Shown here piece after piece: positions 3,756-13,109 of a DNA stretch of 64,000 nucleotides. Source of the DNA: an uncultured Elusimicrobia bacterium (GTDB taxonomy: Bacteria; Elusimicrobiota; Elusimicrobia; 2-01-FULL-59-12). Under the pieces are notes generated by a model. It saw nothing but the letters and a program-made list of their open reading frames with translations. It was not told the origin of the DNA and made no database searches. The stretch's first letter is position 1. Each line of letters begins with the position of its first letter. The stretch is taken from the NCBI GenBank assembly GCA_963702895.1, contig OY969767.1, positions 1,312,001-1,376,000 of the forward strand, in the 5' to 3' direction. The translations under genes and the position numbers were made by a program.

Positions 3756-3779
3756 CGAGAGGCATTATAGTACGTCAGC

Positions 3780-4229
3780 TCAGAAGGGAGCTTTGCCGGG
3801 GGCATTGGCCTGACGGGCAAGGCGAGAAAGGATGATCGAAAGACCGATGGCGCCAACGATCGAGCCGGCGATCATCGCTCCCGCTATCCAAAATGACGAA
3901 AAGACATGTTCAGTCAAGGAGCGGTAGAGAAACGTTAAAGCACCATGCAAGAGGGCGCCTAAAACAGCGCCGAGGGAGAATGAACGGCCAAAGTCATAAG
4001 GGCGATGAAAATAAGATGTGCGTTGAATAATCATGGCCGTGACGATGCTCAGGGCCGCCCCCGTCAGAAGAGCGGGCAGCCATGTCTCGACGTAAGCAAA
4101 AAGCACCACTTGGTCGAGGTGACCGCGGGCAAAGTCTGGAAGACCTTTGATCCAAAGCAGGAGAAACGTGACGAGGGGGATCGCCACCATACACCCCAAT
4201 GCAAAGATAACACGGTCTTTGATTTTCAT
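3780..4229 (-). CDS. Hypothetical membrane protein (about 4 TM helices)
   Basis: Four hydrophobic segments; ATG 4229 (MKIKDRV) preferred as start. Confidence 0.6.
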   Translation of the reverse strand: MKIKDRVIFALGCMVAIPLVTFLLLWIKGLPDFARGHLDQVVLFAYVETWLPALLTGAALSIVTAMIIQRTSYFHRPYDFGRSFSLGAVLGALLHGALTFLYRSLTEHVFSSFWIAGAMIAGSIVGAIGLSIILSRLARQANAPGKAPF

Positions 4230-4330
4230 GCGATTAGAATACAAAAGTTGCTTATGACGAAAGCAAGCTTCTCCTCGGGTCGACCAGCGTGCCTGGCACC
4301 ATAGGTCATGTTGTAATGGAAGACGGATGA

Positions 4331-5584
4331 TTATTTAGAAACGGTAACACCTTTTGGGAAATAGCGGTCAAACAAGAACGCCACGATCAGACAGGCGCTG
4401 CTGCCCATGATCAGCGCCGGAGTCGGCCCCACACTGCCCGCGAGACCGCCCGCCAAGAGACCACCCAATGGGCCTATGCCTTCCATGGCCACGGTATAGT
4501 AGCTGATCACCCGTCCGCGCTTATCGTCTTCAGCCAGGTGTTGCAGTGTGGTATTGGCCAACAGCATATGTGTCATAACGGTGAAGCCGACCACCCCGAG
4601 CATGATCAGAGACAGCCACAGGGTATGGGATAAGGAAAACACAATAAACGCAAGTGCGAACAAGCCCACCGATGCTGGTAGGCCACGGCTCAGGCTGGCC
4701 ACTTCCCGACGACCGGCCATGAACAACGTGGCGGCAAGGGCGCCAAAGCCAATAGCAGCCATGAGTTGCCCCAGCGTAGACGGCCCGCCACCCAGAACAC
4801 TTTTCGCAAAAACAGGCATCAAGACCACGAATGAAAAGCCCATGAGGTTAAACAAGGACAACAGCATCAGCACAGAACGAATCGGCCGGACTCCGGAAAC
4901 ATAGTCAAAACCGACTTTCAATTCATTCCAAAGATCACTCTTCGGAGCCTGGATTTGTTCGGCACGGATACGAATGACCATCAGGCTGACCAAGACCGCC
5001 AAGAAGCTGATGCCGTTGATCAAGAAACAAGGACCTTCCCCTACGCGAGCGATCAGCCAGCCCGCGATCAGCGGCGCAACTAAGCGCACTGAATTAAAAA
5101 CCATGGCGTTGAGCGCTATCGCATTACCTAGAACTGCCTTGCTCTCGACAATATCGAGGAGGAAAGCCTGGCGCGCGGGAGTGTCGACAGCGTATACACA
5201 TCCAATGAAACCACTCAGGACGAGGACATGCCAGGGCACGATACTCCCGCTGAATGTAAGAGCGGCAAGCGCGAATGCCTGCGCCATGGCCAATGACTGA
5301 GTTGCCAGCAGGACTCGTCGCCGGGGCCAGCGATCGATAAGGACCCCCGCCACCGGACTCAGAAACAAACTGGGTATTTGGGTAACGAACACGATCAACC
5401 CCAGCATCAGTGCCGAATCCGTCAGGCGATACACCAACCAGCTCATGGCGATCTGCTGGATCCAGCTGCCCATGAGTGAGGTCCCCTGGCCAAAGAAATA
5501 AAGCCGGAAGTTTTTGTAGGCGATTGCCCGGAACATCGGACTGATGCGTGATTGAAGTTGCAAAGCCAATGACGTTACCTCCAT
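4331..5584 (-). CDS. MFS transporter (MFS_3/EntS-like exporter)
   Basis: NFRLYFFGQGTSLMGSWIQQIAMSWLVYRLT, motif A GVLIDRWPRRRVL, DKRGRV; about 12 TMs. Confidence 0.9.
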   Translation of the reverse strand: MEVTSLALQLQSRISPMFRAIAYKNFRLYFFGQGTSLMGSWIQQIAMSWLVYRLTDSALMLGLIVFVTQIPSLFLSPVAGVLIDRWPRRRVLLATQSLAMAQAFALAALTFSGSIVPWHVLVLSGFIGCVYAVDTPARQAFLLDIVESKAVLGNAIALNAMVFNSVRLVAPLIAGWLIARVGEGPCFLINGISFLAVLVSLMVIRIRAEQIQAPKSDLWNELKVGFDYVSGVRPIRSVLMLLSLFNLMGFSFVVLMPVFAKSVLGGGPSTLGQLMAAIGFGALAATLFMAGRREVASLSRGLPASVGLFALAFIVFSLSHTLWLSLIMLGVVGFTVMTHMLLANTTLQHLAEDDKRGRVISYYTVAMEGIGPLGGLLAGGLAGSVGPTPALIMGSSACLIVAFLFDRYFPKGVTVSK

Positions 5585-5610
5585 CGATTCTTAGACGGGC
5601 AAGAAGTACG

Positions 5611-7518
5611 TTACGCAGCTGCGGTCTTCGAATCTATCTGAAGCGCTGCGTAGCGGCGCTTGGCATGTTCGGGGGAGATCGCGACCGCTAGCGAGAGATA
5701 CTGGTTCCCCTCCTGAAACATCAGCTTCAACGTGCAAAGCTCCTTCAGTGTGTCTTTAAGGATGGCTTCGCTTCCGCCGTTCTGAGTGTAGCGCTTAAGC
5801 AACTGATCAAAGCTGCGGATTTCTGTGCAAAACAGATAAAGGTCACGGTCTTGCTCATCAAGAACGACTTCGCTCAGGCCTCCCCCACGTCTATCGAAGA
5901 TATTTAAGAAGGTCTCGCCATCCTGATAGCTCAGCGTGTTTTCGGGATACGAGTAGTAGGAACCCTTCCACTGTTCACATGCATCATGAACCGGTGACCA
6001 GTCTGCGCTGGGCAGCGTTGAATCAAAGTCGAGCTCGTAGGTGTTAATTCGCCTCCACACATCGTCTGGCATGCCAACGCGATACATTTCACGGTTACGG
6101 ACGTTCGTAATGCCTACCTCTTGGCGCACTTTATCCACCGCCGTGTCAATGAAGAGCGCGAATTTGGATATGTTGAGAGGTTCATAGGAGATCGCGAAGT
6201 CGAGAATGTTCCTGCGAGTCTCTTCGATCTCCTCTTGAGTGGTGCCTGGAAATTCCGTGAGCAGATTGGATTGACTCGTGATTCTGAGTTCAGCGCATGT
6301 CCTGAGAGCCTGCAGGTTCTGAATGGTAGACGTGCCTTTGCCGATGCGGCGAAGATACGCGGTCGACAGCCCCTCGATACCCATTTGGGTATTCTTGAGT
6401 CCGGCTTCCTTCAGTAAGAAAAGCTCATAGGGCGTAATACTAGCGCGAATCTCATGAAAGAATTGATAATCCCGGCGATGAGCCATGAGCTCCTGCGAGA
6501 ACGCCTTAACGCCCTTGGTTCGTAGGACATCATCAACGAAAATGAAATTTACGTTCCGATACCGGCAGCTGAGCTGATCCATTTCCGCAACGATGCGCGG
6601 GATGGACCGCTCGCGGTAACGTTCATATTGCGTGTTGACTGTGCAGAATTGGCATATCGACTTGGTATTCTTGGTTTGTGCCGTACGATTCCACCAGCAC
6701 CCGCGGGAACCCTGAATTGGGATCGACCAGACCACGTTGTGCTGCTCGGCAAGAGCCACATATTCTTCGTAGTTGGGCGGAGGCAGGTCATCGAAGGGAG
6801 CCGGCTCGGGCCTCTGGACCACGTCCTCTCCGGAAGGAAGGCGTCTTAGCACTCCCGGAATGGGGCAATCAGCCACGCGCTGCGCGGCAACGGCATCCAG
6901 CAATGAAACAAGCGGACGCTCTCCTTCCCCTTGAACGATAAATTCGATCCACGGATACTCGCGCATGATGGACGGGCCCACCCGCCCTGCAAGAGTCATA
7001 CCGCCGAGGATCACTTGCGTTGTCGGCGACATCTCCTTGAGCCTCTGGGCGACTTTCAGATTGAGAAAGAGCTGTGCATAGGACGTCGTGAACCCGACCA
7101 GCTGAGTGCCAGCAAGCTGCTGAGCTGTGCGCTCGACGAGCAACGAGAGAAGTCCGCTCAAGCGGTCAAAGGTGTTCCCCTGCTTCTGAAGAGCAGCGGG
7201 AATTCCTTTGTGCCAGGCTTCGAAGTGGCCCCGTATGGATGCGGTCTTTGAAGGATAGAGGAGTTGCAGAGCCAGCAACTCACCTACTTGGTGACAGTGA
7301 GATGCGATGTGCTTATAGAGGTCCGCTCCGAGTCGTTCCGCGAAGTCGACATAGAGGTGGTGAGTGGAGACGTTCCACTCGGGACGCTCCTTGCGAACGA
7401 ACGCAGAGAGAACGCCCAGTGCGGCAGACGGGCGATCACGATGCGACCATGGGAGCGAAACAAGAGCCAGACTGAGGGGTCGAATTGACATGACTATCGA
7501 TACCCCAGGTTTGTTCAT
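5611..7518 (-). CDS. Cobalamin-dependent RiPP-maturation radical SAM enzyme (TIGR03975-like C-methyltransferase)
   Basis: LVSLPW..RPSAALGVL N-terminus; B12-binding region VGFTT..VILGG..GEGE; SRGCWW-X12-CQFC; QMGIEGLS; C-terminal DG..FLNIFDRR..YLSLAV domain; alternative start ATG 7491. Confidence 0.85.
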   Translation of the reverse strand: MNKPGVSIVMSIRPLSLALVSLPWSHRDRPSAALGVLSAFVRKERPEWNVSTHHLYVDFAERLGADLYKHIASHCHQVGELLALQLLYPSKTASIRGHFEAWHKGIPAALQKQGNTFDRLSGLLSLLVERTAQQLAGTQLVGFTTSYAQLFLNLKVAQRLKEMSPTTQVILGGMTLAGRVGPSIMREYPWIEFIVQGEGERPLVSLLDAVAAQRVADCPIPGVLRRLPSGEDVVQRPEPAPFDDLPPPNYEEYVALAEQHNVVWSIPIQGSRGCWWNRTAQTKNTKSICQFCTVNTQYERYRERSIPRIVAEMDQLSCRYRNVNFIFVDDVLRTKGVKAFSQELMAHRRDYQFFHEIRASITPYELFLLKEAGLKNTQMGIEGLSTAYLRRIGKGTSTIQNLQALRTCAELRITSQSNLLTEFPGTTQEEIEETRRNILDFAISYEPLNISKFALFIDTAVDKVRQEVGITNVRNREMYRVGMPDDVWRRINTYELDFDSTLPSADWSPVHDACEQWKGSYYSYPENTLSYQDGETFLNIFDRRGGGLSEVVLDEQDRDLYLFCTEIRSFDQLLKRYTQNGGSEAILKDTLKELCTLKLMFQEGNQYLSLAVAISPEHAKRRYAALQIDSKTAAA

Positions 7519-7537
7519 TTTTCAAGGAGTTAAATAA

Positions 7538-7588
7538 CGAAACGTGAGAGCTCTGGGGACCTACCGATCCACAGGCTCTCACGTTTCG
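7538..7588 (-). terminator. Stem-loop between peptide gene and rSAM gene (terminator/attenuator or stabilising hairpin)
   Basis: Perfect 14-bp arms CGAAACGTGAGAGC (7538-7551) / GCTCTCACGTTTCG (7575-7588), followed on the minus strand by TTATTTAA; second 7-bp hairpin at 7592-7614. Confidence 0.75.
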
Positions 7589-7632
7589 CAACTGTCGAAA
7601 AAACTTATCGACAGACCATCGCCAGCATCAGA

Positions 7633-7764
7633 CTAATCGCCCCAACAAATATTGACTGGTTCAACCTTTCTTTCGAATGATTGGCTCGCTGCTTTGAGTT
7701 CCTCCGCTGAGAGACTTGGGGTGTCCCTGGTGACGGTGATTTTCTTGGTTTCTTGTGATTCCAT
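7633..7764 (-). CDS. Putative RiPP precursor peptide, 43 aa (not in ORF track)
   Basis: Manual translation MESQETKKITVTRDTPSLSAEELKAASQSFERKVEPVNICWGD*; SD AAAGGAGG 8 nt upstream; co-oriented directly upstream of the rSAM gene. Confidence 0.8.
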   Translation of the reverse strand: MESQETKKITVTRDTPSLSAEELKAASQSFERKVEPVNICWGD

Positions 7765-8323
7765 ATCGGCATCCTCCTTTCACGAGTTATTTTCGACGGA
7801 CGAATTCTATCGACAATATCCGATACGACCTGGTGATATCGATATCTTCTGATTGAGAATGATCCATCATGATTGGCTTACAAACTTTCCTCGAGTCTAA
7901 CAATCGAATATTACGATTGCGTTACGGGTGAGATATATTGTGTTGGAAGAGCAAGGACATCATCACATTCTCCACGTCTTTTAGGCTGGATTCTTATCTT
8001 TACCCGCGCCCGAAGAACCTGATCGTCATTTCACGGCTCTTTGAATCCCATGGATGATCGTTCTCAGTTGTTGGGAGGAAATCTCATTTCTGAGGGTTAA
8101 GGACGTACAGAGGCCATGAATTGCGTACGCGCGCAGGCGACTTAAGAAACGAATGACCTCGCGATATCCATCCGACTCTTAAAAGCTTGGCTCGCAACAT
8201 CTTCAAGTCCACGACTCCATCGATTCGACCGCAGGACACCAGGTATGTTCCTCTCATCCCTCATACGAAAGGGGTATTGCGCGTCCTATGAGCTCTAAGG
8301 AATCGGACATCGCTCATGGCTCG

Positions 8324-9208
8324 TCACCCCCCGCGGCGGCAGGAGGCACCGTCCGAAATGATCGTAATGGTCCCGAGGCGGTCTGTTCGGAGAGTTTGAT
8401 CCGCGAGAGAAGGATAGCGTTCCGGGCGCGAGTGGCTGTAAGCGTTGGGACCTACCGAGAGTCCGATCCAATCCACCTTCCGCATCATGCTTTCCCAGGC
8501 AGGATCGAGTTGGTCGCCGTGGTGCGGCCAGTTGGCAAAACAGAACTTCAAGCCGGCCGACTGCAAGCGTTCTTGCGCGCGTTCGATGACCCGGGCTTGG
8601 ACCGTGGGGGCCAGATCACCGCAGAGAAGCATCGCTGTTTTGCCGAAGCTCACCCAAAGCACAAGGTCATTTTCGTGCATCGATCCCTTGATTGATGGAG
8701 GATTGAGAACTTCCACCTCGATTCCCCCCGGACCAGACAGGCGCATGCCCTGGCGAACGACACGAACTTCTGTGCCGCGTTTTTGCAGGCGCTCGAGGGT
8801 CCGGGCGATGTCGGTCTGACCAGCTGCATCCCCACTCCAATAAAGCGTTTGGATAGGCGGTTTTCTCCAGTGGGCATATCCGCCGCTATGATCGGGATGC
8901 GCATGCGTCAAAAACGCCGCATCGATTCGCCTTACACCTAACTCGCGCATTTTCGACCGAATCTTCGGTAAAGCGTCTTTCGGGCCTGAATCAATGAGCG
9001 CAATCCATGAGTGACGCTCATCCTTTGACTGTAAGAGGAGGCAAGACCCGTAGCCCACATCGAGCATGTGAAGCGTGAGTTCCTGGGCTTGAGCCTGGGA
9101 CAGCAGCAGCGCTAAGGTTGACAGAACAATGAGCAGGGATGCCTTTCCCCTCTCCCGCCGAAGGTGGGAGAGGGCGGTGCCCGGCTTGTGGGCAAAGGGT
9201 GAGGGCAC
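8324..9208 (-). CDS. Secreted MBL-fold metallo-hydrolase (ComEC/Rec2 C-terminal type)
   Basis: LDVGYG, LIDSG, THAHPDHSGG, LLCGD, PHHG and RTDRLGTI motifs; signal peptide ending AQA; start uncertain (GTG 9208 chosen, frame open to 9433). Confidence 0.8.
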   Translation of the reverse strand: MPSPFAHKPGTALSHLRRERGKASLLIVLSTLALLLSQAQAQELTLHMLDVGYGSCLLLQSKDERHSWIALIDSGPKDALPKIRSKMRELGVRRIDAAFLTHAHPDHSGGYAHWRKPPIQTLYWSGDAAGQTDIARTLERLQKRGTEVRVVRQGMRLSGPGGIEVEVLNPPSIKGSMHENDLVLWVSFGKTAMLLCGDLAPTVQARVIERAQERLQSAGLKFCFANWPHHGDQLDPAWESMMRKVDWIGLSVGPNAYSHSRPERYPSLADQTLRTDRLGTITIISDGASCRRGG

Positions 9209-9371
9209 GGCCTTGCCCTCATCCCAACCTTCCCACTTACAACCGTGGGACCTGCGCCCCGACGGGTCGCCTGACGCGACCGTAGGGGCTGTCCCTCCAC
9301 CCGCAGGGTGGACGGGACGCTCTATAGGGAAATTGAGGAAGCGCGGGTCTCCCGACACGTTGGTCGGGAGA
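9148..9371. repeat. Cluster of REP-like palindromes
   Basis: CCCTCTCCC-gccgaaggt-GGGAGAGGG (9148-9174) with GGGTGAGGG (9197-9205); GTAGGGGC then hairpin 9291-9318; TCTCCCGAC-acgttg-GTCGGGAGA (9348-9371). Confidence 0.7.
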
Positions 9372-9480
9372 AGGGGTCCTGACAGCGCCCGCTGCGCGCT
9401 AAAGTGGTGAAGGCTAAGCATTGTTTGCGACAATAGGTCTCTATGATGATAGCCAATTCTCGCTCGGCGCGGTGTTGTCC

Positions 9481-10035
9481 ATGAAGAATCAACCCAAACC
9501 GACTCTTTGGCTGCCGCCGCTTGTTCTGACCCTCGTGATGTGGATGACAGTCGGCTACGTCCGCCCCATCACCGAGTGGCTGCGTGCGCGCGGGATCTTG
9601 GCGAACTCGATCTGGACAATCTTTGCCCTGATCGCCGCAGTCGTGATTTGGACATCATGGAAGAAGGGTCAGCCGAGCGGAACCGGCGGCGGAAACGACA
9701 CACTCCGATGCATCTTTCTTCTGGCAACGAGCGTGGCCACCTACATCGCCCTGATGCTGGTGATGGTTGTGGCACCGGAAGAGCGCTTCCACTTCATCCT
9801 GGTGGGTCTCGTGACGTACTTGTACTTTCGACTCTTTGAAGCGCTCTGGCCCACAACGTGGTTTGTTCCCTTCTTCGGTTTCCTAGCTGGCGCGCTGGTC
9901 GGCGGGATCGAAGAAGGCCTCCAAAAGTTCTATCCCTCACGCTTCTTTGACTGGCGGGATGTCGGGATCAATGTTCTGGCCGCGTTCATGGCAACGTTGT
10001 TGATCCACTCCTTGAAAGCACGGCGCCGCCGCTGA
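9481..10035 (+). CDS. VanZ-like membrane protein
   Basis: PEERFHF, GGIEEGLQ and RFFDWRDVGIN motifs; multiple TMs. Confidence 0.75.
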   Translation: MKNQPKPTLWLPPLVLTLVMWMTVGYVRPITEWLRARGILANSIWTIFALIAAVVIWTSWKKGQPSGTGGGNDTLRCIFLLATSVATYIALMLVMVVAPEERFHFILVGLVTYLYFRLFEALWPTTWFVPFFGFLAGALVGGIEEGLQKFYPSRFFDWRDVGINVLAAFMATLLIHSLKARRRR

Positions 10036-10046
10036 GGTCTCTTTCC

Positions 10047-10457
10047 TTACCACATCCTCATCAGTCCGATGAGCGCGACGATCGCCATCACGACCACCAT
10101 CAAAACCAACACCATATTTTCTGTAGAAATGGCTTTTCTTTTCTTTGGTGCTTGTTTGGGTTCTTCAGGTAGCGAGGCGTGTAGTGCTAAACGTTCGAGT
10201 TCGTCTTCAGAGACCTCGCTTTGCTTATACTCTTTGTCATGCATCGCAATGAGGTGCTTGGCTTCCTCAACTTGATCTTCAGGCACCACGACGCGAATTC
10301 CTCCTAAAGCGGGGGTGAGCCATGGATTGAGCCCGGCGAGATGCGAATCCCAGACCCTGGCATGCAGGCCCGCGCTGAAGAGTTTCAGCCGGACAGACTC
10401 CGCTTCCGAAACCGTTTGGGCTCTGTACACAACCTCCCAGCTCAAAGTCCGCTTCAT
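10047..10457 (-). CDS. DUF2007 family protein with C-terminal TM
   Basis: EAESVRLKLFSAGL..GGIRVVVPEDQVEEAKHLI pattern; hydrophobic C-terminus. Confidence 0.75.
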   Translation of the reverse strand: MKRTLSWEVVYRAQTVSEAESVRLKLFSAGLHARVWDSHLAGLNPWLTPALGGIRVVVPEDQVEEAKHLIAMHDKEYKQSEVSEDELERLALHASLPEEPKQAPKKRKAISTENMVLVLMVVVMAIVALIGLMRMW

Positions 10458-10515
10458 CTCAGAATTTCCTCATAGTCTCTACTGTACTTTAAGGACCCAT
10501 TTGAGGCAACAGCAC

Positions 10516-10544
10516 TTGTCTCTCGTACACTCGTATGGTATAGT
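10516..10544 (+). promoter_or_regulatory. lexA promoter, probably leaderless
   Basis: TTGTCT, 17 nt, extended -10 TGgTATAGT, 7 nt, ATG 10552; no SD. Confidence 0.65.
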
Positions 10545-10551
10545 CCGCCCT

Positions 10552-11756: not shown

Positions 11757-13109
11757 TCAGGAATACTTCTTGAGGAGCATCGCGCCCCCTAATCCTCCGG
11801 CGGCGCAGGCGGTGGAAAGAGCGTAGCGGATTTCAGGCTTTTGTTTCATTTGGTAGAGAGCGTTCAAGACAATGCGCGTGCCGGTCGCGGCCAGGGGATG
11901 GCCGAGCGGGATGGAACCGCCGTTGGGATTGAGTTTTCCGTCTTTCCACTTGCTCTCCCAATGATGGCCATACTTTTCCCGCCCGACTTTAAAGATCGCT
12001 AAACAAGTCGCGGAGAACGCTTCATGGAGTTCAATCAGATCGATTTGGTCAAAGGTGATCCCCGCACGCTCGAGGGCGTTCGCCGTCGCGAAGACCGGAG
12101 CGATCCCCATATGAGCAGGGTCATTCCCCCAGTAACCCCAGTCGACGATTTCCGCCAGAATCTCAAGTCCCAGTTCTTTCGCGCGCTTCTCGGAAGCCAC
12201 AATCACCGCCGCGGCACCATCGGACCTCGCGCAGGAGTTGAAGAGTGTGACCGTCGCCTGGCTTTGGCCCTCGATGTATTTCTTACCCAGGATAAACTGA
12301 CCGTACATCTCATAGAACCGTTTGATCGAAAAGGATGGCCCATCAAAGAGAAGGGGAGCTTTGGAGAGCATCGCCGGTTTATTCACGAGGGCCTCGCGGA
12401 GATAAGGATACTCGTCCTTTTCGAGGTGGACTTCATCGTTTTCTTCGACAGGCGTGACGTGGGATTGATAGAAACCAGACTCTTCCGCCGCCAGGCACCG
12501 CTTGTACGTCTCGTAGGCGTAGGCGTCCTGGGCCCCGCGCTCAATCGAGTACATCTGCGCGCAGACTTCGGCGGTGGCCGCCATATTGAGGTTCCGAACA
12601 GGGTCGTTGAGACCTTCCTCGATGCAATCCACAAGCGAAATCTCCTTGTTCGTTAAAAGACTCGCCCAGTTGGCGCGAACGGCCTCCAGAGAGCGAAGCT
12701 CTTTGACGCTCCGATCGCCGCGAATGGCGTAAGGGAAGGAAGACATGGATTCCGTCCCCCCCGCGATGTAGATATCTCCCTCCCCCATGACGATATGACG
12801 CGCCGCCGAAGAGATCGCCTCTAGGCCAGAGATACAGTTTGCTTGAACCGTTACAGCATGGGCTTTTTCAGGCAGATGTGAAAGGAGTACAGCAATCCTG
12901 GCGATGTTGGGAGCATGGCTTCCCTGGCCGACCCAACCCGCCATGACACCGTCCACCGCGTGAGGATAAAGGGTTGTTTTGGCCAAGAGCGCATTGATCG
13001 TGAGCATCAAAAGATGCTCTGGGGAAATGCCCGAGAGGCTCTTGTTAAAGTGCCCGATCGGGGTCCTGATCCCGCCGCAGAGAACGACTTTGGTGTCTCT
13101 CACTTTCAT
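11757..13109 (-). CDS. Thiolase (acetyl-CoA C-acyltransferase)
   Basis: IRTPIG, catalytic Cys QANCISG, AGGTESMS, DGAAAV, HEAF, GHPLAATG and CAAGG; SD GAGGAG before ATG 13109. Confidence 0.9.
   Translation of the reverse strand: MKVRDTKVVLCGGIRTPIGHFNKSLSGISPEHLLMLTINALLAKTTLYPHAVDGVMAGWVGQGSHAPNIARIAVLLSHLPEKAHAVTVQANCISGLEAISSAARHIVMGEGDIYIAGGTESMSSFPYAIRGDRSVKELRSLEAVRANWASLLTNKEISLVDCIEEGLNDPVRNLNMAATAEVCAQMYSIERGAQDAYAYETYKRCLAAEESGFYQSHVTPVEENDEVHLEKDEYPYLREALVNKPAMLSKAPLLFDGPSFSIKRFYEMYGQFILGKKYIEGQSQATVTLFNSCARSDGAAAVIVASEKRAKELGLEILAEIVDWGYWGNDPAHMGIAPVFATANALERAGITFDQIDLIELHEAFSATCLAIFKVGREKYGHHWESKWKDGKLNPNGGSIPLGHPLAATGTRIVLNALYQMKQKPEIRYALSTACAAGGLGGAMLLKKYS

Follow-up and report, generated by a model that had tools for sequence, protein, structure and literature searches.

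What is the substrate of an enzyme whose gene lies between a 43-codon open reading frame (ORF) and a transporter gene? This question is raised by a three-gene cassette in a 64,000-nt stretch of DNA, here called the window, from an uncultured Elusimicrobia bacterium (assembly GCA_963702895.1, contig OY969767.1, positions 1,312,001 to 1,376,000). The enzyme is a radical S-adenosylmethionine (rSAM) protein that depends on cobalamin (B12), and a sequence-only reading had proposed a stand-alone pathway for a ribosomally synthesized and posttranslationally modified peptide (RiPP). With slightly better than even confidence, we read the locus as a minimal RiPP cassette whose enzyme would beta-methylate Val, Pro, Ile or Thr residues of the peptide. 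This reading draws on the TIGR03975 membership of the enzyme, fold matches to B12-rSAM enzymes and to RiPP recognition elements (RREs), a strong Shine-Dalgarno (SD) sequence and an independent gene call for the peptide, the hairpins behind it, a layout resembling that of clavusporin, and a likely second enzyme-transporter pair. The co-oriented peptide ORF, the two hairpins, the B12/rSAM gene and the gene of the major facilitator superfamily (MFS) transporter were all found where they had been placed before. The features are as follows.

4331..5584, minus strand: MFS_3/H+ antiporter-type transporter; likely start TTG at 5569 behind GGAGG, 412 residues
5611..7518, minus strand: B12-dependent rSAM enzyme, TIGR03975 subfamily; 635 residues, or 626 counted from the ATG at 7491
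5710..5940, minus strand: predicted RRE/PqqD-like winged-helix domain at the enzyme C terminus, about residues 527-603
6643..6699, minus strand: [4Fe-4S] motif C274-x14-C289-x2-C292, located by sequence alignment
7538..7588, minus strand: hairpin 2 (by folding), a long stem with interruptions whose 13-bp outer arm pairs perfectly, then TTATTTAA
7592..7614, minus strand: hairpin 1 (by folding), 7-bp stem
7633..7764, minus strand: peptide ORF, candidate precursor; 43 residues, identical to public protein P0121
7773..7780, minus strand: SD sequence AAAGGAGG, 8 nt ahead of the start codon (ATG) of the peptide ORF

The enzyme and its C-terminal domain

The TIGR03975 assignment held. The enzyme scored 319.8 bits against a cut-off of 281.85, matched model positions 2-606 of 606, and was the sole above-cut-off member in the genome; its radical SAM match (PF04055, 44.8 bits) also exceeded the cut-off. 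C274, C289 and C292 were invariant across 63 aligned sequences, and the x14 spacing of the CX14CX2C motif was present in 119 of the 120 top homologs. The Pfam B12-binding match was below threshold (14.1 vs 32.1). Nevertheless, an N-terminal cobalamin-binding domain is supported by the AlphaFold model (predicted local distance difference test, pLDDT, 93), since its N-terminal domain aligned with the B12 domains of MetH and mutases (Z about 8) and the whole model with B12-rSAM enzymes at Z scores of 20-24 (TokK 24.0, CysS 23.8, OxsB 22.6, TsrM 22.1). OxsB was also the best sequence match in the PDB (E 7e-12), where no close relative has a solved structure.

Compared with the TIGR03975 family, which includes PoyB/PoyC of the polytheonamide pathway and the bottromycin methyltransferases, the window enzyme passes the family cut-off and combines B12-binding, rSAM and C-terminal domains in the same way. 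However, it is a low-scoring member (320 bits vs 465-660 for most full-length proteins of the same phylum) and belongs to a divergent CX14CX2C clade, mostly from Myxococcota and Acidobacteriota. PoyC is reportedly a C-methyltransferase, going by a reference title. Unlike the RiPP systems of the family, the window cassette has no NHLP/Nif11 leader, epimerase or YcaO. In line with the sequence-only reading, NCBIfam and Pfam scans of eight neighbouring proteins found no YcaO, LanM, SPASM or protease family. Nor did they find an rSAM epimerase or, in the cassette, any gene for nonribosomal peptide synthetases (NRPS) or polyketide synthases (PKS). The cassette is not a proteusin: both the NHLP/Nif11 leader and the epimerase typical of that polytheonamide-type class were absent.

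The C-terminal domain is predicted to be RRE-like, with a putative role in leader binding. When residues 515-630 were folded alone, the best of 48,161 chains was the lasso-peptide RRE TbiB1 (Z 8.7, root mean square deviation 2.1 over 75 aligned residues), and the RRE-bearing lasso B1 protein 6jx3 and TigE ranked third and fourth. With Foldseek, no E value was significant; TbiB1 had the top TM-scores among the matches listed. The predicted domain has the beta3-alpha3 winged-helix fold of these RRE/PqqD proteins but only about 12% identity to them, and it is fused to the C terminus of the enzyme. The PqqD profile did not match the window protein and matched 2 of 54 homologs weakly, while a profile of the C-terminal region found nothing significant among PDB sequences.

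The peptide and the hairpins behind it

The 43-codon ORF was present with the sequence originally proposed, and its strong SD sequence was confirmed. AAGGAGG followed after 5-9 nt by ATG occurs 77 times in the genome, and 60 of these 77 sites open an ORF of at least 40 codons. Furthermore, a public collection holds an identical 43-residue protein (P0121), showing that a standard gene caller had picked up the peptide independently. Taken together, the SD sequence and this call support a real ORF. Codon statistics were less telling: the peptide frame had the best codon score of all six, narrowly (-0.018 vs -0.079 for the next). Against 678 long ORFs, its synonymous usage ranked at the 1st percentile, a value of little weight for 43 codons.

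The two hairpins described after the peptide were also substantiated. The 126 nt past its stop codon fold at -51.5 kcal/mol (z -5.48), and none of 200 shuffled sequences was as stable. Hairpin 2 is likely a leaky terminator or an mRNA stabilizer; a promoter/terminator scan, which gave no excess over shuffled sequences, did not list it. An Rfam search of positions 7400-8400 returned nothing near threshold (one match, E 2.1). An imperfect inverted repeat at 7900-7920, within AT-rich DNA upstream of the peptide ORF, is a possible regulator site.

No NCBIfam or Pfam family matched the peptide, and the ESM Atlas contained no usable match. Apart from a self-match of the hairpin and one 42-nt match (E 0.0125), the genome has no second copy of the peptide region. 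A division into a leader of residues 1-32 and a core of K33-D43 is likely, and 4 of the 11 residues after Arg32 are Val, Ile or Pro. Placing the core at the C terminus is nevertheless a guess. The likeness of the N-terminal ITVT to clavusporin cores is no weaker, and this segment could be either an RRE-docking strand or the part that is modified. A predicted complex of enzyme and peptide scored 0.01, which counts neither for nor against the pairing.

Clavusporin, the enzyme clade and competing explanations

A near precedent, overlooked by the sequence-only reading, is clavusporin (mpc; our locus L166) of Streptomyces clavuligerus. There, a 39-residue precursor is encoded directly before a TIGR03975-type B12-rSAM enzyme, with an MFS transporter in the operon; MpcBC beta-methylates Pro, Val, Ile and Thr carbons in a leader-dependent manner, and MpcP cuts after an Arg so that the core begins with Lys (PMC10849626). 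The window cassette shares the core of this arrangement: a 43-residue peptide directly upstream of the enzyme gene, an MFS gene in the same cassette, and an Arg-Lys junction (Arg32-Lys33) ahead of a segment with Val, Pro and Ile (VEPVNI). Since clavusporin already pairs a precursor with a B12-rSAM enzyme and an MFS transporter, the novelty of the locus is lowered. New in this analysis are the CX14CX2C motif and the predicted RRE-like fold of the C-terminal domain; a literature search, in which subscription journals were thinly covered, found no title or abstract on the window peptide or on a CX14CX2C B12-rSAM RiPP clade.

The differences from clavusporin are considerable. The two enzymes are 25% identical, and MpcB carries CX7CX2C in place of CX14CX2C. 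An S9 peptidase is encoded in the mpc operon but not among the window neighbours; the three S9-family matches in the genome all lie more than 360 kb from the cassette. Moreover, the cassette has no acidic follower, and the Cys-Trp end of the peptide is unlike clavusporin cores. The mpc clusters were reported from Actinobacteria only (PMC10849626). By analogy, the cassette would work like clavusporin but falls outside the mpc group, with neither a DUF5825 gene nor an operon peptidase. It appears to be a pared-down form of a pathway type already described, likely yielding a methylated peptide.

Under this reading, the genes would share one transcript, hairpin 2 would allow more mRNA for the peptide than for the enzyme, and the predicted RRE-like domain would grip the 43-residue peptide. 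A 5'-deoxyadenosyl radical would abstract hydrogen, and methylcobalamin would then supply methyl groups to beta-carbons, as in MpcB and PoyC; V34, P36, V37 and I39 are the likely sites. If the peptide is cut like MpcA, whose leader and core meet at an Arg/Lys junction, cleavage after Arg32 would release an 11-residue core, KVEPVNICWGD. The leader would be trimmed by a host protease and the product exported by the MFS transporter. Both trimming and cofactor supply are possible, since S9-family and TldD/PmbA peptidase genes and five B12-binding proteins are encoded elsewhere in the genome. The product would be a small, hydrophobized, protease-resistant peptide, most plausibly a signal or a surface-active molecule.

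To place the enzyme, we surveyed the surroundings of 36 distinct loci from its clade, whose enzymes share 32-50% identity with it (L027-L045 and L067, 20 loci, plus 19 further loci minus 3 duplicates); the more distant L046-L066 and L068-L070 stood outside this classification. Genes were called by a codon-score script, which very short ORFs can escape, and the L040 peptide was spotted by eye. A short or multi-core peptide adjoins the enzyme in three loci (L027, L034, L040), and a low-complexity ORF of 115-430 residues lies directly upstream in eight (L035, L036, L039, L042, L176-L179). Single loci have an 80-residue ORF without an assigned family (L043), a repeat protein with tetrapyrrole-methylase-type genes (L172), a dehydratase-like/JmjC cluster (L033), a neighbouring oxygenase (L183) and an MFS/aminotransferase cluster (L030); in two, the upstream region is missing. 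NRPS, PKS or acyl-AMP-ligase genes are neighbours in 11 loci (Pfam-confirmed for L029, L184, L185, L187, L188 and L190; by likeness for the rest, L181, L186, L189, L191 and L192), and the remaining seven have no visible adjacent substrate gene.

Several of these results, with others, count against the RiPP reading. Because 11 of the 36 loci adjoin NRPS, PKS or acyl-AMP-ligase genes and another seven stand alone, clade membership is, on sequence evidence, not diagnostic of a ribosomal substrate. None of the 36 has a peptide similar to that of the window. The peptide found only itself among 5.8 billion proteins (one candidate) and in a HMMER search of 1.84 billion representatives (threshold E 0.001), and tblastn against 182 non-self loci gave a best E of 0.06. 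At these search thresholds, a relative of 43 residues that shares about 50% identity might go undetected; with no homologs, conservation and selection provide no evidence for the peptide. Its alignment with MpcA was likewise not significant (p 0.12). Of the 141 alignment columns that at least 90% of 61 homologs conserve, the enzyme deviates at 19, and seven of these changes are shared with P0002. In the fold comparison, generic winged-helix proteins follow the RREs within about 1-2 Z, so that the RRE-like domain is predicted only, and NRPS-associated homologs carry such a domain too. Finally, MpcB is inactive without the DUF5825 protein MpcC (PMC10849626), and a search of this genome found no DUF5825 gene; its sole match, at 15.2 bits, was a part of the enzyme and fell short of the threshold.

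In summary, the stand-alone RiPP proposal gains from the TIGR03975 match, the predicted RRE-like domain and a likely enzyme-MFS pair elsewhere, but not from the clade, which is not diagnostic, nor from a conserved peptide. The expected peptides with ERKVEP/CWGD-like ends were not found beside enzyme homologs, a survey that did not cover the context of the sole close homolog, P0002 (69% identical).

A quick maximum-likelihood tree (62 rows) refines this picture. The window enzyme pairs with P0002 on a long branch of full support, and this branch groups loosely (support 92, with an open fork) with a set of 13 loci and with P0037; in 10 of the 13 loci, a co-oriented ORF lies directly upstream (eight low-complexity ORFs, L040 and L043). 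The NRPS/PKS members occupy a separate branch. Judged from the sequences, the nearer tree neighbours lean toward ribosomal substrates.

The strongest competitor, which we consider unlikely, is that the methylated substrate is either a small molecule or the product of a gene elsewhere. The MFS protein would move this substrate, and the 43-codon ORF would be incidental or would encode a regulatory leader peptide. The 11 NRPS/PKS-type and seven solo loci fit this explanation, as do the singleton status of the peptide in both protein searches and a resemblance to an attenuator, which consists of a short ORF plus hairpins. Attenuator leaders typically have a run of one amino acid, however, which the peptide lacks. 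Moreover, the cassette holds no NRPS/PKS gene, and the clade members that adjoin such genes sit on their own branch.

It is quite improbable that the cassette is what is left, inactive or decaying, of a larger cluster from which a protease, a partner protein or further enzymes have disappeared. Such decay would agree with the different cargo in the same chromosomal slot of four relatives, the lack of a close homolog in 392 other genomes of the class, the truncated and frameshifted appearance of P0002, and the nine conserved columns at which the window enzyme is altered where P0002 keeps the consensus. Yet neither reading frame is interrupted or shortened, the three Fe-S cysteines are kept in a confidently modelled enzyme, and the SD sequence and hairpins are in place.

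Least probable is that the peptide is the substrate of chemistry other than simple beta-methylation, such as a cross-link or S/C-methylation at Cys40-Trp41: the Cys-Trp end would suit it, as would changes around the cluster loop and the barrel that P0002 has in common with the window enzyme (Q269, V294, R304, D330, H355), but the characterized TIGR03975-type RiPP enzymes checked (MpcB and, by reference title, PoyC) are C-methyltransferases and nothing here points to it directly. There is a precedent in that some B12-rSAM RiPP enzymes, such as BipD, carry out C-C coupling (PMC12707348).

The survey also yielded observations in their own right. In L027, an Acidobacteriota metagenome-assembled genome, two multi-core precursors of 92 and 98 residues (5505-5783 and 11761-12057) carry VKAG...NHNQT repeats; one directly precedes a 48-50% enzyme homolog, the other a BesC-like oxidase gene, and neither has an NCBIfam match. 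L040 (about 5763-5816) has a 17-residue ORF with a strong SD sequence and a VKSG motif directly upstream of the enzyme gene. The VKxG motif is also present in the ORFs upstream of the L039 and L042 enzymes, and the 46-residue peptide of L034 has it in the forms VRSG and VRAG. The upstream ORFs of L039 (5020-5484), L042 (5485-5982) and L036 (5545-5892) are signal-peptide-like, low-complexity and rich in Lys, Pro, Val and Thr; they possibly encode secreted methylated substrates. A conserved low-complexity protein family of 280-430 residues directly precedes the enzymes of L176-L179 in four genomes, and L176 is without a family match. L172 (1-3969) encodes a protein of AVRCAPAVDP-unit repeats and two tetrapyrrole-methylase-type genes flanking the B12-rSAM gene, a cluster which we take to be borosin-like. 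In L026, a 155-residue ORF (2474-2941) overlaps the start of a TIGR03975-like enzyme gene; its product begins with a Lys-rich segment and contains some 20 PIKP/PIEP repeats. TIGR03975-like enzymes inside myxobacterial NRPS/PKS/acyl-AMP-ligase clusters (L184-L192, L029, L181) suggest that the family name, "RiPP maturation", over-predicts RiPP function.

Pairwise comparison of the window peptide with 10 candidate clade substrates gave a best p of 0.005, uncorrected, for L035, and at least 0.12 for the other nine. The L035 likeness was set aside as compositional in a low-complexity protein, and a KITVT shared with L036 was not significant (p 0.5).

Distribution, chromosomal slot and significance

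The cassette is rare. Close homologs of the enzyme were not found in 11 other genomes of the order (completeness 73-98%) or in 392 others of the class. Among 400 other genomes of the phylum, 12 had an above-cut-off TIGR03975 protein, with best scores (490-660 bits) all above that of the window enzyme; those compared were about 24-27% identical to it. Single-sequence scans found no relative in genome contigs and one distant locus in metagenome contigs, and an alignment-based viral scan found one weak locus. The transporter (MFS_3, 195.8 bits) had a best match of 43% in the 11 genomes of the order; its most identical homolog was P0125 (67%). Since P0002 and P0125 each come from a single ENA contig of 28,476 bp, they probably lie on one contig, and the enzyme-MFS pair likely recurs in a second assembly, with putative adjacency. 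As seen here, the cassette is intact in one genome only. One DNA sequencing run contained two identical short pieces (4272-4529 and 7076-7289), with the peptide outside both. Among the runs listed as containing this DNA, none was of RNA.

The cassette lies in a 6.8-kb interval (3756-10551) flanked by lexA and a CpXC gene. In relatives, these flanking genes are adjacent (G004) or separated by about 450 bp (G002) or about 4.4 kb (G003 and G007), and none of the three cassette genes lies in the interval of any of the four. The interval is a slot whose contents differ in each relative compared, and we conclude that the cassette is accessory cargo. It was probably acquired horizontally. The AT-richness ascribed to the stretch applies to the peptide and its flanks (GC content 0.47) but not to the enzyme (0.544) and MFS (0.552) genes, which are near the genome value of 0.570. 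Two neighbours, a 154-residue membrane ORF (3780-4244) and a ComEC-like hydrolase (8324-9433), were excluded from the cassette, as relatives carry them without the enzyme. Elsewhere in the window, Pfam matches identify a DUF433 and DUF5615/PIN pair at 474-1057, likely a toxin-antitoxin module, and, in the span 1210-2753, a GIDE-domain membrane protein, which is followed by a gene presumed to be LemA-like.

The weight of the finding is limited by one intact genome, a peptide without relatives, a host represented here by a genome assembly alone, and the fact that cassettes of precursor and B12-rSAM enzyme have already been described. Nevertheless, the cassette offers a compact test case, with one enzyme and one substrate, for the divergent CX14CX2C clade, of which our searches found no characterized member. 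There is a slim chance that it represents a one-enzyme RiPP class, in which a self-sufficient CX14CX2C enzyme with a built-in RRE and no DUF5825 partner performs new chemistry on the Ile-Cys-Trp-Gly-Asp end of the peptide, such as cross-linking or an unusual alkylation; it would then be the first characterized member of a clade whose substrates have changed among ribosomal peptides, large proteins of low complexity and products of NRPS/PKS pathways. If the favoured reading of methylation without a DUF5825 partner is true, the C-terminal winged-helix domain would be a working RRE and the enzyme a simpler catalyst of peptide C-methylation than MpcBC.

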